Assembly: GCA_963762145.1 (NCBI GenBank)
Contig: CAVXJS010000009.1
Coordinates: forward strand, 768,001 to 832,000
Direction of reading: 5' to 3'
Source of the DNA: an uncultured Candidatus Rokubacteria bacterium
Lineage (GTDB): Bacteria; Methylomirabilota; Methylomirabilia; Rokubacteriales; CSP1-6
Length of the DNA: 64,000 bases
The notes under the pieces are model-generated. The model was not told the DNA's origin, ran no database searches, and saw only the letters and a list, made by a program, of their open reading frames with translations. Positions 27,511 through 42,810 of the stretch are shown one piece after another (position 1 is the first letter of the stretch; each line of letters opens with the position of its first letter). Made by a program: the position numbers and the translations under genes.

Positions 27511-28110
27511 ATGGCGGCGGAAGTCGAGCTACCCAAGCCCGACGACCTGCACGAGCACGCCGCCAGTTCCTTCAGCCGTCGGGTCGCGCTGGTCACGGCC
27601 ATCTACGCGGTGGCCCTGGCCATCGCGGCCCTCGGCGGCAACCACGCGGTCAAGGAAATGCTGCTGGCCCAGCAGCTGTCCACCGACCAGTGGGCGTTCT
27701 ACCAGGCCAAGGTCATCCGCGAGCATCTCTACCGCGCCCAGAAGATGGGCCTCGAGGTGGATCTGGCCTAGCGCGCCGCGGCGCCTCAAGCGGCGGCGCG
27801 CGAGCGGATGGAGGCGCTTCTCAAGAAGTTCGACGAGGAGGAGAAGCGCTACAACGCCGAGAAGTAGGACATCGAGAAGGACGCCAAGAAGCTCGAGGCG
27901 CTCCGCGACACCTACCAGGCCCGCGAGCCCTACTTCCTGGTCGCGGAGGCGTTGCTGCAGATCGCCATCGTGATGTCGTCGGTGTCCATCCTGGCTCGCT
28001 CGGGCCTGATCTTCTCGGTCAGCCTCGTCCTCGCCGTGGTGGGCGCCGTCCTGACCCTCAACGGCTACTTCACGATCTTCCACCTCCCGTTCTTTCACGG
28101 CGGCCACTAG
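27511..28110 (+). pseudogene. DUF4337-like membrane protein with two in-frame TAG codons
   Basis: The frame continues past TAG 27769-27771 and TAG 27865-27867 with family-like sequence (DQWAFYQAK; AEALLQIAIVMSSVSIL, TM helices) to TAG 28108-28110. Confidence 0.75.
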
Positions 28111-28112
28111 GC

Positions 28113-28135
28113 TCGGAGGGGGGCTATGCCCCCCT
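28113..28135. repeat. left part of a REP-like hairpin interrupted by IS110
   Basis: TCGGAGGGGGGCTATGCCCCCCT joined to TCCGA (29263-29267) reconstitutes the hairpin TCGGAGGGGGGC-TAT-GCCCCCC(T)TCCGA. Confidence 0.8.
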
Positions 28136-28147
28136 TGTATCTTAGGA

Positions 28148-28312
28148 ACTCCGGCGGATAGCGTAGCCGGAGTGAAGGCGGGCGGGAGCCCGCGCCCCCC
28201 TGGGTCGGCCAAGACCGTTCGGAAGCCTGGGGCCCTGCCTGCCGCTTCACGTGCCGTGAACCCGAACAGTCGCTTGGGCCGCTCGGCGAGCCCGCATCGA
28301 CAAGGACGGGAC
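28148..28312 (+). ncRNA. predicted IS110 bridge RNA
   Basis: 5' hairpin 28148-28173, target-binding loop with guides at 28193-28201 and 28219-28225, donor-binding loop with guides at 28266-28274 and 28300-28304, all matching the insertion junctions. Ends are approximate. Confidence 0.85.
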
Positions 28313-29245
28313 ATGGAACGGATCTTCGTGGGGCTGGATGTCTCGAAGGATCGGCTGGACGTGCATGTACGCCCCACGGATGAGCAGTTCGCGGTGGCGT
28401 ACGAAGAGGCGGGGGTGGCCACGCTGGTGCACCGGCTGGTCGACCTGCGGCCGATGCTGATTGTGCTGGAAGCGACCGGCGGGTATGAGAGCGCCGTCGC
28501 CGCCGCGCTGGCACACGCCGGGTTACCGGTGGCGGTGGTCAATCCCCGGCAGGTCCGGCAGTTTGCGCTGGCCACGGGGCAGCTGGCGAAGACGGATCGG
28601 CTCGATGCGCGGGCCAATGCGCGCTTTGCGGAGTTGGTGCAGCCGGCGGCGCGGCCGCTGGCCACGGAGCAGGCGCAGGGGCTGGGGGAACTCGTGGCCC
28701 GGCGGCGCCAGCTCGTCGATATGCTGGGGGCCGAGCAGAACCGGCATCGCCAAGCGCGGGTCCGCGGGCTGCAACAGCGCATCCGGGCGCACGTCACGTG
28801 GCTCACGCGGGCGATCGCGGAGGTCGACAAGGCGATCGCCCGGCTCATTCGCACGAGCTCCGTGTGGCGGGAGACGGAGGATCTGCTGACCTCGGCGCCG
28901 GGGATTGGCGCCCTCACCGCGCACGCGCTGATCGCCGACCTCCCGGAACTGGGTCGGCTGGATCGGCGTCGGATTGCCGCGCTCGTCGGCCTGGCGCCGT
29001 GGAATCGCGACAGCGGCCGCTGGCGGGGGCGGCGCATGATCGGCGGGGGCCGGGCCGCCGTCCGCCGCGCGCTGTACATGCCCACCATCGTGGCGATTCA
29101 CCACAACCCGGTGATCCGGGAGGTCTACCGGCGGCTCACGGCCGCGGGCCGCCCCAAGAAGGTCGCCGTCATCGCGGCCATGCGCAAGCTACTCACGATC
29201 CTCAACGCCATGCTCCGGGACCGCCGCCCATGGCAACCCGCTTGA
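28313..29245 (+). CDS. IS110 family DEDD transposase/recombinase (310 aa)
   Basis: GLDVSK, LEATGGY and KTDRLDA (RuvC-like DEDD), PGIG, GLAP...DSG (catalytic Ser), AMRKLL. Start ATG 28313. Confidence 0.96.
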   Translation: MERIFVGLDVSKDRLDVHVRPTDEQFAVAYEEAGVATLVHRLVDLRPMLIVLEATGGYESAVAAALAHAGLPVAVVNPRQVRQFALATGQLAKTDRLDARANARFAELVQPAARPLATEQAQGLGELVARRRQLVDMLGAEQNRHRQARVRGLQQRIRAHVTWLTRAIAEVDKAIARLIRTSSVWRETEDLLTSAPGIGALTAHALIADLPELGRLDRRRIAALVGLAPWNRDSGRWRGRRMIGGGRAAVRRALYMPTIVAIHHNPVIREVYRRLTAAGRPKKVAVIAAMRKLLTILNAMLRDRRPWQPA

Positions 29246-29262
29246 CCGGCAAGACAGTCGCT

Positions 29263-29343
29263 TCCGACGGTCGTCGCGCGCCGGACGGCGCACTCCTCCC
29301 TGCCTCCCCCCAAGCGGATTGCGCGGGCGAAGCCCGCGCTCGA
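29263..29343. repeat. remainder of a composite REP/BIME-like intergenic repeat
   Basis: TCCGA...CCTCCCCCCAAG...GCGCGGGC-GAA-GCCCGCGC hairpin (29321-29339) between convergent genes. Confidence 0.6.
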
Positions 29344-29354
29344 AACGGCCGGGA

Positions 29355-30512
29355 CTAGCGGCGGAAGTCGGCGCGGGTCGGCAGCAGCCGGTCGGCGATG
29401 AGGTTGCGCATCATCTCGACGGTGCCCCCGCCGATCGCGAACATGCGGGCGTCGCGCGCCATGCGCTCGAGGGGCAGGCCGCGCCCGTAGCCGGCCGCCC
29501 CGTGGATCTGGAGCGCCTGGCCGGTCACCTCCTGCGCCATCTCGGCCGCGAAGGTCTTGGCCTCGGCGGCCTCGAGCGCGTCCGGGAACCCGGCGCCCGC
29601 GTTGGCGGCGGCGCGGTGGATGAGCAGTCGGGCCGCGTCGAGCTTGATCGCCATGTCGGCCAGCTTCCAGCGGATACCCTGGAAGTCGCCGATGACCCGG
29701 CCGAACTGTCGCCGCGTGCCCGCGTAGGCCAGGGCGAGCTCGTACGCGCCCTGGGCCAGGCCGAGGGCCACCGTGGCGGCGCCAAGGCGCTGGCTGTTGT
29801 AGGCCTCCATCAGCTTCTTGAAGCCGTCGGGCGGACCCACCAGCACGTGCTCACGGGGCACGCGACAGCCCTCGAAGTGGAGCCGCCCCTCGGGGATGCC
29901 GCGGAGGCCCATGGTGTGGTCGCGCTCGCCGACGCGGAATCCCGGCGTGTCGCGCTCGACGAAGAGGCCGCCGATGCCCGCCGCTCCCGGCTTCCCGCCC
30001 ATGCGGCAATAGACGAGATGGAGCCGAGACGTCCCGGCGCCGGTGATCCATCGCTTCTCCCCGTGGAGGGCGTAGCCCTCGGGCGCCTCGTCGGCGCGGG
30101 TCACGAGGTCGGTCGCCGCCGAGCCCGCCTCGGGCTCGGTGATCGCGATCGCGGGCTTGTCGCCCTCGAGCACCCACGGGAAGTAGCGCCGCTTCTGCGA
30201 CTCGGTCCCGTACGCGGTGAGCGCCCCGACCACCCCGAGGCTTCCCTCGACCACGATGCGCGCGGTGACCCCGCAGGCGCGCGCGATCTCCTCGACGACC
30301 AGCAAGACATCGAGGATGGACGCGCCGGCTCCTCCGAACGCCCGGGGAATGCTGAGCCCCATGAAGCCGGCCTGGACCAGATCCTTCACGTTGTCCCAGG
30401 GGTATTCCTCGGCGGCGTCCCAGCGGGCGGCGCGGTCGCGGAAGACGGTGTCGGCCAGGTGGCGCGCGCGAGCCTTGAGTGCTTCCTGCTCCGCAGTGAG
30501 CTTGAAGTCCAT
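29355..30512 (-). CDS. acyl-CoA dehydrogenase family protein
   Basis: AITEPEAGS, GEKRWIT, MGLRG, RRQFG, QIHGAAGY and IGGGT motifs. Confidence 0.93.
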   Translation of the reverse strand: MDFKLTAEQEALKARARHLADTVFRDRAARWDAAEEYPWDNVKDLVQAGFMGLSIPRAFGGAGASILDVLLVVEEIARACGVTARIVVEGSLGVVGALTAYGTESQKRRYFPWVLEGDKPAIAITEPEAGSAATDLVTRADEAPEGYALHGEKRWITGAGTSRLHLVYCRMGGKPGAAGIGGLFVERDTPGFRVGERDHTMGLRGIPEGRLHFEGCRVPREHVLVGPPDGFKKLMEAYNSQRLGAATVALGLAQGAYELALAYAGTRRQFGRVIGDFQGIRWKLADMAIKLDAARLLIHRAAANAGAGFPDALEAAEAKTFAAEMAQEVTGQALQIHGAAGYGRGLPLERMARDARMFAIGGGTVEMMRNLIADRLLPTRADFRR

Positions 30513-39609: not shown

Positions 39610-40852
39610 CGCGCGGGATCAAGGCCTCGAATTCCTCGCGGAACTTCTCGATGTAGCTGACGTAGGGGCCGACCGCGCCGTCGTAGAAGGCGCAGATCGT
39701 GGTGCCGGCGCCGCGCTTGGCCACGTCCAGGATCGTGTCGAGGTCCTCCTTGCGTCCCTTCCCCTCCACGATCCGGTGGCTGATCTTGTAGATCCAGCCG
39801 GTGGACTCGCGGCAGGGCGTGCACTGCCCGCACGACTCGTGCGCGTAGAAGCGCGCCACCACCATCAGGGCCTCCGGGATCGAGACCGTCTCGTCCATCA
39901 CGATCACGCCCGCGGAGCCGATCATGCTGCCGACCGCCTTGAGGCCGTCCGCGTCCATGCTCACGTCGATCTCGTCCGCGGTGAGGATCGGGGCGGAGGA
40001 GCCGCCCGGCACCACCGCCTTCAGCCGTCGCCCGTCGCGGATGCCGCCGCAGTGGTCGTAGATGAGGGAGCGCAGGGTCACCGACACCGACGCCTCCACC
40101 ATCCCGGGCTTCACCACGTGGCCCGACACCGAGTAGAGCCGCGTGCCGCCCTGGGTCTTGGTACCGAGCCCGGCGAACCACTCCGCGCCCCGATTGATGA
40201 TGTGGGGCACCGCCGCGATGGTCTCCACGTTGTTCACGATGGTGGGCTGGCCGAAGGCGCCCTTGATGGCGGGGAACGGCGGCTTGATCTTGGGCCAGCC
40301 CTTCTTGCCTTCGAGCGACGACAGCAGGCCCGTCTCCTCGCCGCAGATGTAGGCCCCGGCGCCCCGGTGCACCACGATGTCGAAGTCGAAGCCCGAGCCC
40401 TGGATGTTCCGGCCCAGCAGCCCCGCGTCGTATGCTTCCTTCACCGCCCCGCTGAACACCTGCCACGGGTTCACGTACTCGCCCCGGATGTAGACGAAGC
40501 CCACGTGCGAGTCGATCGCCCGCGCCGCGATGATCATGCCCTCGATCAGGGCGTGGGGATCGCGCTCGAGCAGGTAGCGGTCCTTGAACGTGCCCGGCTC
40601 ACCCTCGTCCGCGTTGATCACGAGGTACTTCGGCGCCGTCGAGCCCTTGGGGATGAAGCTCCACTTCATGCCGGTCGGGAACGCGGCGCCGCCGAGGCCG
40701 CGGAGGTTGGACTTCTTCACCTCCTCGGTGATGGCGGCGGGCTCCATCTGCAACGCCTTGGGCAGCGCGGTGTACCCGCCGGTCTCCCGGTAGACGCCCA
40801 GGGTGTGCGAGCTCGGCCGGTCGAAGTTGCGGGTGAAGATCAGCTCGGCCAT
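39602..40852 (-). CDS. nuoF: NADH-quinone oxidoreductase subunit F
   Basis: LRGLGGAAFPTG, NADEGEPG, YICGEETG and ESCGQCTPCR motifs. Confidence 0.96.
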   Translation of the reverse strand: MAELIFTRNFDRPSSHTLGVYRETGGYTALPKALQMEPAAITEEVKKSNLRGLGGAAFPTGMKWSFIPKGSTAPKYLVINADEGEPGTFKDRYLLERDPHALIEGMIIAARAIDSHVGFVYIRGEYVNPWQVFSGAVKEAYDAGLLGRNIQGSGFDFDIVVHRGAGAYICGEETGLLSSLEGKKGWPKIKPPFPAIKGAFGQPTIVNNVETIAAVPHIINRGAEWFAGLGTKTQGGTRLYSVSGHVVKPGMVEASVSVTLRSLIYDHCGGIRDGRRLKAVVPGGSSAPILTADEIDVSMDADGLKAVGSMIGSAGVIVMDETVSIPEALMVVARFYAHESCGQCTPCRESTGWIYKISHRIVEGKGRKEDLDTILDVAKRGAGTTICAFYDGAVGPYVSYIEKFREEFEALIPRDA

Positions 40853-41337
40853 CAGGAGAGCCCGTCCAGGATGCGGTCCACCTTCTCCGGCGTGAGCAGC
40901 CCCTCGTAGCGGTCGTCCACCTGCATCATCGGCGCCGCCTCGCACGCGCAGAGGCATTCCACCGTGAGCAGCGTGATGCGGCCGTCCGCGGTGGTCTCGC
41001 CCACCTCGACGCCCAGGCGTCGGGTCAGGTGCTCGACGATGGACTTGGAGCCGAGGAGGTGGCAGGAGAGGTTGTGGCAGACCGAGACCACGTGGCGGCC
41101 CGTCGGCTGCTGGAAGAAGAGCGTGTAGAAGGTGACGACCTCGTGCACGTGGGCCGGCGACATCTCGAACAGGCCGGCCACGTACTCCTCCACCTCGAGC
41201 GACACGTAGCCGAAGACCTCCTGGGCCAGACGCAGCACGGGTAGCAGCGCGCCCTGCTTGTCCGGGTAGAGGGCCTGGAGGCGGCGGACTTCTTGTAGCT
41301 GTTCTGCCGTGAACTCAGGCCGCTTTGGGTCAGCCAT
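40852..41337 (-). CDS. nuoE: NADH-quinone oxidoreductase subunit E
   Basis: VVTFY and CHNLSC...ECLCAC 2Fe-2S motif. Confidence 0.94.
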   Translation of the reverse strand: MADPKRPEFTAEQLQEVRRLQALYPDKQGALLPVLRLAQEVFGYVSLEVEEYVAGLFEMSPAHVHEVVTFYTLFFQQPTGRHVVSVCHNLSCHLLGSKSIVEHLTRRLGVEVGETTADGRITLLTVECLCACEAAPMMQVDDRYEGLLTPEKVDRILDGLS

Positions 41338-41394
41338 TCGTCACCTGGGCAGACAGGTTGGGAGCTTGGGCAACCCCCTCTATTTTTCTAAGCC

Positions 41395-41414
41395 GGGCAC
41401 GGCGAGCCGTGCCC
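41395..41414. repeat. REP-like hairpin in the nuoD-nuoE spacer
   Basis: GGGCACGG-CGAG-CCGTGCCC perfect hairpin within an AT-richer 100-bp spacer. Confidence 0.7.
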
Positions 41415-41439
41415 TCTGTAAGGTGCTTTCGCATCTTTT

Positions 41440-42810
41440 TTATCGGTCGAGCTCCCCGCCGATCATGTTGACGGAGCCGAAGGTGGGGATGATGTCGGCG
41501 ACCATCTCGCCCTCGATCATGGCCGGGATGGCGGCGACCGGGTTCATGCACGGCGGGCGGCACCGCACGCGGTACGGCCGGTCGGTGCCGTCGGACACCA
41601 CGTAGAAGCCCAGCTCTCCGTTGGCCCCCTCCGCCGCGAAGTACGCCTCGCCCGGAGGCGGACGAATGCCGTAGCCCTCCATGACCAGCATGAAGTGGTT
41701 CATCAGCCCTTCGATCGAGCCGTAGGCCTCCGCCTTCGTCGGCAGGACCACACGCTTGTCGGCCGCGTTCACGCGATCGTGCGCGCCGCGATCCTGGCCC
41801 TGCAGGTTGGGCGAGAGCTTGATGGGCAGGAGCAGCAGGCCCTCGGTCTTGCCCTGCTTGCCCATGTCCACGTAGGCGGCGGGATCGATGGCCTTCCCCT
41901 CCCAGTCCACCTGGATGGCGCCGCCCGGGAGGCCGTCGAGGGCCTGCTCCGCGATCCGCATGGACTGCTCCATCTCGGCCATCCGGACCAGGAAGCGGTC
42001 GAAGTTGTCGCCGTTCTTGCCGAGCGCGATGTCGAACGGGATCCGGTCGTACGCCCAGTAGGGCTGCGTCTTGCGCAGGTCGAACGGCACACCCACCGCG
42101 CGCAGCAGGGGCCCCGTGATCCCCCACGCGATCGTCTCCTCCCGGCTGAGCGCGCCCACCCCGACCATGCGGTCCATGAAGATCCGGTTGCCGGTGACGA
42201 GGGTGTGCACCTCCTCGAGCACCTGACGGGTCTCCGCGAACGCCTTCTTGACCTTCAGGTCGAACCCGGCCGGTAGATCGGCCTTCACACCGCCCACGCG
42301 CCCGTAGGAGATCGTCAGCCGCGCGCCGGTGACGTCCTCCACCAGCTCCCAGAGGAACTCCCGCGCCTTGATCATGTAGAGGAATACGGTGAAGGCGCCC
42401 AGCTCCATCGAGCCTGCGCCCACGCACGTGAGGTGGTCGCAGATCCGCGAGATCTCGCTCATGATCACGCGGATGTACTTGCAGCGGTCGGTGATCTCGA
42501 TGCCGAGCAGCTTCTCGATCGCCGAGGTGTAGCCGAAGTTGTTGATCAGCGGCGAGACGTAGTTGAGGCGATCCGTGTACGGAATCGCGTTGTTGTACGG
42601 GCCCGCCTCGCAGTCCTTCTCGAACGCGCGGTGGAGGTAGCCGATCTCCACGTCGGTCTTGACCACCGTCTCGCCGTCCAGCTCGGCGAAGATGCGGATG
42701 ATGCCGTGCATGGCCGGGTGCGCCGGCCCCATGTTGACGTAGAGATGCTGGGTGCCGTCGGCGCTCGACCCCTCGCCCAGGAACAGCTCGCGCGTCTTCC
42801 GCTCGGCCAT
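41440..42810 (-). CDS. nuoD: NADH-quinone oxidoreductase subunit D
   Basis: NMGPAHPAMHG, GYLHR, DRLNY, GELGFY and C-terminal GELDR. Confidence 0.96.
   Translation of the reverse strand: MAERKTRELFLGEGSSADGTQHLYVNMGPAHPAMHGIIRIFAELDGETVVKTDVEIGYLHRAFEKDCEAGPYNNAIPYTDRLNYVSPLINNFGYTSAIEKLLGIEITDRCKYIRVIMSEISRICDHLTCVGAGSMELGAFTVFLYMIKAREFLWELVEDVTGARLTISYGRVGGVKADLPAGFDLKVKKAFAETRQVLEEVHTLVTGNRIFMDRMVGVGALSREETIAWGITGPLLRAVGVPFDLRKTQPYWAYDRIPFDIALGKNGDNFDRFLVRMAEMEQSMRIAEQALDGLPGGAIQVDWEGKAIDPAAYVDMGKQGKTEGLLLLPIKLSPNLQGQDRGAHDRVNAADKRVVLPTKAEAYGSIEGLMNHFMLVMEGYGIRPPPGEAYFAAEGANGELGFYVVSDGTDRPYRVRCRPPCMNPVAAIPAMIEGEMVADIIPTFGSVNMIGGELDR

Follow-up and report, generated by a model that had tools for sequence, protein, structure and literature searches.

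An IS110-group insertion sequence with a predicted, readable bridge RNA in the genome of an uncultured Rokubacteria bacterium

The DNA analysed here is a stretch of 64,000 nucleotides from an uncultured Candidatus Rokubacteria bacterium (positions 768,001 to 832,000 of contig CAVXJS010000009.1, assembly GCA_963762145.1), referred to below as the window. On its forward strand, at positions 28136-29262, the window carried an insertion sequence of the IS110 group, 1127 bp long when one of its two CT cores is counted. Our findings suggested, with a probability of about 0.9, that this element moves by bridge-RNA-guided recombination, as IS621 does. Every sequence-level feature of the IS110 group and of the IS621-type bridge RNA that we looked for was found, while transcription of the RNA, its binding by the recombinase and the dependence of recombination on it are predicted from the analysis. 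The bridge RNA mechanism was published in 2024 together with thousands of predicted orthologues (Durrant et al., PMC11208160), and later published work covers excision and half-site recombination. An initial annotation of this stretch, made from the sequence alone, had proposed an IS621-type bridge RNA architecture, and that reading was supported by protein models, by a covariance model of the RNA and by covariation of the guides with their DNA partners.

The borders of the element were independently confirmed by its copies, as three loci aligned over exactly the same length in divergent surroundings. A search of the 1127-base sequence against its own genome (6.26 Mb, 70% G+C, 25 contigs) returned three full-length copies at 99-100% identity; the alignments spanned bases 1-1127 exactly, and the sequence beyond them diverged in the three loci, a shared hairpin excepted. 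At the left border, TGCCCCC (28127-28133) and CT (28134-28135) preceded the element start TGTAT at 28136, and at the right border ACAGTCG (29254-29260) and CT (29261-29262) preceded the flank TCCGA (29263-29267), which was identical in all three genomic copies. The left flank of the other two copies read CGCCCCC-CT. The ends had the layout of the IS110 group, with a long left end, a short right end, CT at both borders and no long terminal inverted repeats. The initial annotation had the element's coordinates right, and its flanks, cores, ends, guides and inner hairpins all lay where it had placed them; the length of the non-coding left end, which it gave as about 165 nt, was corrected to 177 nt (28136-28312). 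Past the stop codon, the right end was 17 nt long. Around the donor stood a sub-terminal inverted repeat of 3 bp, CTT at 28141-28143 being the reverse complement of AAG at 29251-29253. The length of 1127 bp was also the commonest in the clade, shared by 30 of the 103 homologous elements in which both ends were located.

Variation among the three copies amounted to 13 sites, none of them in a guide; within the left end only two sites varied (28207-28208), and these fell in the loop of an inner hairpin. The reading frames were intact in all three copies, which differed at 5 amino acids in total and kept every catalytic residue. A tblastn search of the genome with the recombinase at E 1e-5 gave only these three copies and no further IS110-family genes.

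The recombinase gene occupied 28313-29245 on the forward strand and encoded 310 amino acids, with a RuvC-like DEDD domain and a Tnp domain bearing the catalytic serine. Pfam assigned residues 6-147 to PF01548 (DEDD_Tnp_IS110, 7e-21) and residues 190-273 to PF02371 (Transposase_20, 5e-18), and the NCBIfam model NF033542, ‘IS110 family RNA-guided transposase’, was passed at 211.6 bits against a cut-off of 140. Among solved structures, residues 3-307 were covered by the recombinases of ISCro4 (9t56, 1e-36) and IS621 (8wt6, 6e-35). Residues D9, E53, D95, D98 and S234-G235 aligned with D11, E60, D102, D105 and S241-G242 of IS621 (the chain numbering of 8wt6 is offset by two residues), and the active site of IS621 has been described as D11, E60, D102, D105 and S241, with G242 (Hiraizumi et al. 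2024, PMC11208158). Judged by its sequence, the protein is an IS110-family DEDD/Ser recombinase, and the 310-residue recombinase of the initial annotation was upheld, with both Pfam domains present, the family model passed and five catalytic residues kept.

Homologs were drawn from 18 loci in species-representative genomes, 80 metagenome contigs and 30 loci in 251 genomes of the same phylum. A left end resembling CTTGTATCT (at most one mismatch) lay 150-335 nt upstream of the coding sequence in 112 of 129 protein-matching homologous loci, a set from which the window's duplicate was excluded. The minimum-free-energy fold of 28136-28316 comprised a hairpin at the 5' end and then two stem-loops, each with an internal loop, as the initial annotation had claimed. 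The bridge RNA is predicted to be about 165 nt long, and its 5' stem-loop (CUCCGGCG ... GCCGGAG) spanned 28148-28173. It was followed by a predicted target-binding stem-loop at 28177-28243, indicated by the fold, by compensatory changes and by the guide-flank statistics given below, and by a predicted donor-binding stem-loop at 28261-28310, indicated by the fold and the consensus.

When 63 non-redundant left-end cores were aligned, 24 consensus pairs emerged, of which 17 showed compensatory changes on both sides, including most pairs of the target-loop outer stem. The consensus for the 5' hairpin was weak among 20 close homologs (3 pairs, each with compensatory changes, in an alignment that was not structure-aware). 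Alignment A1 had invariant columns in the second loop (CCCGAAC, CAAG) and at the AG that reads the core, and none of the left-guide columns was invariant. The initial annotation had suggested searching the left end with a bridge RNA covariance model. Model R1, trained on 60 homologous left ends that included neither the window element nor the two left ends nearest to it, matched 28166-28319 of the forward strand over its full length (model positions 1-149 of 149; 104.4 bits, E 3.4e-24). The sole other match in the 64-kb window had an E value of 0.29, and the whole genome gave exactly 3 matches, which were the three copies of the element.

The two predicted loops could be read directly against the DNA at the borders. 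On the 5' side of the target loop, in the same sense as CGCCCCC-CT, lay the left target guide (CGCCCCCCT as DNA, CGCCCCCCU as RNA; 28193-28201), and on its 3' side, complementary to CT-TCCGA, the right target guide TCGGAAG (UCGGAAG; 28219-28225), after which came the handshake base C at 28226. The two guides were separated by an inner hairpin (28203-28217) with the stem GGTC/GACC at 28203-28206 and 28214-28217. The donor loop repeated this plan. Its 5' side held the left donor guide (ACAGTCGCT as DNA, ACAGUCGCU as RNA; 28266-28274), equal to ACAGTCG-CT, and its 3' side was complementary to CT-TGTAT with a 2-nt bulge, the right donor guide being discontiguous (AU at 28296-28297, the bulge, then ACAAG at 28300-28304, followed by the handshake base G at 28305). 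The inner hairpin between them (28276-28293) had the stem GGGC/GCCC at 28276-28279 and 28290-28293. The left target guide matched target plus core at 8/9 positions in the window copy and 9/9 in each of the other two, the single mismatch falling at position 1, and the right target guide matched core plus right target at 7/7 in each of the three copies. The left donor guide matched left donor plus core at 9/9. The matches that the initial annotation had listed (8/9 on the left target, exact on the right target and the left donor) were thus found as it described them.

The same correspondence held across the homologs. The four guide segments were taken from a common alignment for 111 elements, in which the conserved left-end motif marked the left border, and the best match to the element's own left donor guide (at most one mismatch), followed by CT, marked the right one; the target flanks played no part in placing the borders. 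For the right target guide, an ungapped guide together with 5 nt or more of flank was available in 93 of the 111 elements, which yielded 44 unique pairs with 35 distinct guides. Guide and 5-nt right flank agreed at 196 of 220 positions, against a mean of 75.7 and a maximum of 105 in shuffled pairings, and 28 of the 44 unique pairs were perfect (shuffle mean 0.99). Between the left target guide and the 7 nt that precede the core, agreement reached 449 of 630 positions (107 elements, 90 unique pairs; shuffle mean 283, maximum 323); subfamilies differ by one base in the register of this guide, and of two registers the better one was scored, in the shuffles too. Guide-flank covariation in homologs, which the initial annotation had named as a check, was thereby established, as 0 of 10,000 shuffles reached the observed agreement for either target guide. 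On the donor side, the right donor guide read CUAG rather than CAAG in 4 of 4 elements that start with AGT rather than TGT.

These statistics also bore on a simpler view of the left end, in which it would be a mere 5' leader that regulates the recombinase gene and matches its flanks by chance. In its favour, the fold energy of the left end, given below, is unremarkable, and AAGGA at 28301-28305, 7 nt before the ATG, could be a ribosome-binding site. A leader would leave unexplained that four guide segments match in the window and that all of them covary with their DNA partners in homologs, the shuffles never reaching the observed agreement for either target guide, and we consider this view scarcely credible beside the bridge RNA reading. 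The right donor guide with its handshake base (ACAAGGA, in the region 28300-28315) contains this AAGGA, and in the compact clade to which the element belongs the guide may also act as the ribosome-binding site; more distant homologs carried a separate GGAGG further downstream.

The handshake positions are known from IS621 (PMC11208158), and their pairing was examined in both loops. In all of 45 unique cases, three of them T-A switches, the target-loop handshake base, which follows the core-reading AG, would pair with donor position 7. For the donor-loop handshake base and target position 7 the count was 74 of 85, compared with 66.4 expected if the two were independent, a weak signal. Agreement of the left target guide within the close clade, counted from the end distal to the core, was 10, 14, 21, 25, 28, 29, 31, 32 and 24 of 33. 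By this count the two distal left-target positions are only loosely read, agreement there being 10/33 and 14/33.

The natural target is, as far as the insertion loci tell, the descending arm of a GC-rich hairpin that resembles a repeated extragenic palindrome (REP) and stands just after stop codons. IS621 likewise inserts into REP sites. In the window, the left half of the target (28112-28135, forward strand) comprised the 5' arm, the loop and most of the 3' arm of the hairpin, CTCGGAGGGGGG-CTAT-GCCCCCCT, and began 1 nt past the TAG of the upstream gene; the right target TCCGA at 29263-29267 formed the end of the 3' arm. All three copies had the arrangement CTCGGAGGGGGG-CTnn-GCCCCCCT, element, TCCGA, with the hairpin starting 1-4 nt past the stop codon of the gene upstream, and the insertion thus lay in the descending arm (TCGGA-G6 / C6-T-TCCGA). 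No unoccupied exact 14-nt target was present in the genome. Eleven related hairpins stood empty, each 1-4 positions off the 14-nt site defined by the guides; one of them had the core GT, and three had the left half of the window copy but G at right-target position 5. Seven soil contigs encoded recombinases 87-93% identical to this one and carried the same guides; five had the exact left site, one had a mismatch at position 1 and one had 3 mismatches, and all five with at least 5 nt of right flank read TCCGA. The orthologous intergenic region was free of the element in 10 genomes from the same genus, where it held varied repeats, and one of these genomes (L135) had a diverged copy of the hairpin.

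With every insertion of this guide group in the same hairpin, the protein might be thought to read the shape of a GC-rich hairpin, the RNA match being secondary or a by-product of residence in one repeat. A precedent for a role of structure exists in ISPpu10 of Pseudomonas putida, whose site lies in a conserved intergenic repeat and where a GC-rich stem-loop 5' of the site is described as adding specificity beyond base pairing (10.64898/2026.03.19.712850). Our element is alike in this respect, its left target being the 3' arm of a G6/C6 hairpin. In ISPpu10, however, structure is described as acting besides RNA pairing, not instead of it. Moreover, 35 different right guides sat at 35 corresponding right flanks, many of them outside the hairpin, and hairpins of the same shape with 1-4 mismatches were unoccupied. 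Target choice made mainly by shape is therefore unlikely, and pairing of the target guides with the DNA is the reading we prefer.

The hairpin belongs to a bipartite REP-like repeat family found right after stop codons (window 28112-28135 and 29263-29350; elsewhere in the genome, for example, C14(-)248774 and C21(-)255237). In its members hairpin 1, of the form (C/T)CGGA-G5-6...C5-6-TTCCG(A/G), is followed by ACCTCCCCCC and a second hairpin, GCGCGGGCGAAGCCCGCGC, for which a count over both strands gave 31 matches when up to 2 mismatches were allowed. A subfamily of the repeat has an extra segment of about 35 nt after TCCGA. At 28118-28145, the T-rich start of the element (CTTGTATCTT) comes after the hairpin's G6/C6 part, and this combination appeared terminator-like in a consensus scan; it might shield the element from read-through from the upstream gene.

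Joining the right end to the left end would rebuild a promoter. The right end (29242-29262, forward strand) comprised a -35-like TTGACC (29242-29247) that includes the stop codon TGA (29243-29245), the left donor ACAGTCG and the core CT, and the element began at 28136-28143 with the right donor TGTAT (28136-28140) overlapping a -10-like hexamer TATCTT (28138-28143). In the joined ends TTGACC stood 17 nt upstream of TATCTT. The pattern TTGACN-17-TATNNN was conserved across homologous elements: among 80 unique junctions, with spacings of 16-18 nt allowed, 70 had at least 5/6 matches to TTGACA, 73 had the 17-nt spacing and 48 had a box overlapping the stop codon. In the three integrated copies the flank puts GGAGGG at the -35 position, and a consensus promoter scan of the integrated locus (27900-29450) returned 0 sites. 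These sequences are consistent with a predicted sigma-70-type promoter that is rebuilt across the joined ends. Excision in IS621 has been described as reconstituting a promoter (PMC11208160).

By analogy with IS621, a cycle of transposition could then proceed as follows. Excision would join the right and left ends and set TTGACC 17 nt from TATCTT, by which the RNA would be switched on. A tetramer of the recombinase would hold the target DNA on the first loop of this RNA and the donor DNA on the second. The top strands would be cut after CT through a phosphoserine link at S234 and then exchanged, strand exchange being aided by the handshake base C28226 paired with donor position 7, and the bottom strands would be resolved last.

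Several observations weigh against this reading. The fold energy of the left end is unexceptional for its composition (z = -1.12, with 30 of 200 shuffles folding equally well or better), and support for the structure therefore comes from covariation and not from folding stability. A search of 27800-29600 against Rfam 15 at E values up to 10 found no bridge-RNA family. Of 111 elements, 103 had a left-donor-guide match followed by CT past the stop codon, a test that is partly circular since the donor guide served to locate the ends, while the target tests are not circular. Kinship among the homologs makes the shuffles overstate the independence of the target-guide agreements, although 35 different right guides contributed to them. 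Left-guide matches were imperfect at many natural sites, close-clade positions 1 and 2 being the lowest, and the soil contig with 3 left-site mismatches (L023) carries the same guides. Of the two handshake positions in each loop, the window element would pair only at the first. A transcript was not seen either: at least twenty runs contained part of the stretch, all of them soil or similar metagenomes from 11 studies and none on record as RNA, and the contig from a metatranscriptome-labelled run covered only 27800-28010, within the upstream gene. A run guessed to be RNA carried a relative 90-95% alike. The contigs of four runs contained the element and its relatives but no circle junction and no precise-excision contig; contigs drop rare forms, and the absence of a circle junction from them thus says nothing on activity.

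The Rfam 15 search returned a single match, a snoRNA inside the coding sequence, which scored 16.4 bits against a gathering score of 50 and was set aside as chance. The one joint that bypassed the element, 28136 to 29320 in the soil run X15 (depth 2.6, side 25), was considered as a precise excision and rejected, as 23 other letters lay between; this joint, which runs from the left half of the hairpin to the second hairpin of the repeat, is an unoccupied repeat copy from another place or organism.

The missing circle junction and empty-site contig would also fit a genuine IS110 element with a bridge-RNA-like left end that is no longer mobile, its copies being left from a past burst or a segmental duplication. 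Duplication could further be suggested by the right flanks of the window copy and of copy L003, which are alike for at least 40 nt, and broken relatives do occur elsewhere (G181:C21, with 3 in-frame stops; L019, with 58 amino acids open). The shared right flank, however, belongs to a repeat subfamily of which element-free members exist as well, and the left flanks differ upstream of the hairpin. The three intact frames with their 5 amino-acid differences, kept catalytic residues and kept guides likewise speak against decay, as do the soil contigs at 87-93% identity that retain guides and target. We regard loss of mobility as very unlikely, and an element that moves by RNA-guided recombination as the better account of the three copies.

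The likeness to IS621 of Escherichia coli extended to most parts of the system. The recombinases share the same two domains and catalytic residues and align over nearly their full length. The left-end RNA, here predicted, has in both a 5' stem-loop and two stem-loops with internal loops; both have a discontiguous right donor guide, a handshake base, a CT core, a short sub-terminal inverted repeat and a sigma-70-type promoter across the joined ends, the last suggested here by the junction sequences. The left end of IS621 is given as 191 bp and its joined end as 298 bp, with nine RNA bases set discontiguously on seven DNA bases (PMC11208160), and its protein as 326 amino acids (PMC11208158). Our element differed in being more compact, with a left end of 177 nt and a protein of 310 amino acids, in having only 17 nt past the stop codon and a -35 box that overlaps it, and in its own donor and its own target (CGCCCCC-CT-TCCGA), both as deduced from its DNA. 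The recombinase was also distant in sequence from that of IS621 (E 6e-35 over the full length), and its host, an uncultured soil bacterium, has a G+C content of 70%. The recombinase of ISCro4 is reportedly the ortholog used for human genome rearrangement (10.1101/2025.05.14.653916). It gave the best match among solved structures (PDB 9t56, residues 3-307 against 8-319) and belongs to a different clade. The initial annotation had also claimed that the donor resembles that of IS621; the IS621 donor string that it quoted has 0 occurrences in the main text of PMC11208160, and this resemblance is a putative one.

The nearest named relatives were found in metagenome-assembled genomes of Rokubacteria and Methylomirabilia, at 67% identity, and the family was present in 40 of 250 other genomes of the phylum. 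None of the 10 papers listed, of 123 found, joins IS110 or bridge RNA with Rokubacteria or Methylomirabilota, and the ortholog lists of Durrant et al. may already include the element or its clade. Besides the two broken relatives named above, of which that in G181:C21 lies at 40834-41754, decayed relatives in the phylum were seen at G239:C12 and G241:C13. A subfamily from Burkholderiaceae-like hosts (L018, L070 and L076-L078, with left ends of ca. 325 nt, and L007, with 213 nt) was marked by a donor loop whose inner hairpin was much longer; in all of these but L007, about 110 extra bases stood near the 5' end of the left end, and the guides were kept.

The element represents a natural bridge-recombinase system, from an uncultured soil lineage with 70% G+C, that decodes cleanly: all four guides, one handshake position and a predicted junction promoter are legible in its sequence. 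The natural history of the element fits the model, as the exact genomic targets were all occupied and the near-cognate hairpins empty. For annotation, it accounts for three repeats in this genome and for the family in the other genomes of the phylum, and to tool builders it offers a further small ortholog, whose donor is its own and whose target is GC-rich. It differs from IS621 in degree, and the mechanism was published in 2024, which makes the interest of the element modest: it is a clear but ordinary new example that opens no new question. The initial annotation rated its interest too high, given that the architecture is in print and that the protein passes a family model which NCBI already maintains.

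One further possibility, which we offer tentatively and hold to be well short of probable, is that the clade is near a minimal natural bridge system. The whole element takes 1127 bp, with 17 nt after the stop codon, a -35 box on the stop codon itself and a right donor guide with handshake base (CAAGGA) that would serve as ribosome-binding site as well; target choice would combine a 12-14-nt RNA match with the G6/C6 hairpin, and the T-rich left end would insulate the element against read-through. If this were true, the clade would supply a compact ortholog that is adapted to high G+C, naturally very specific, and orthogonal to IS621 and ISCro4.

The gene upstream of the insertion (27511-28110, forward strand) encodes a membrane protein conserved in 11 loci of the same genus. 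It contained in-frame TAG codons at 27769-27771 and 27865-27867, where its orthologs had D or E at the first in 9 cases, with a gap in 2, and K at the second in 11 of 11. This points either to a pseudogene or to an artefact of assembly or strain; a contig from run X1 covered the second TAG (27865-27867) and showed no differences.

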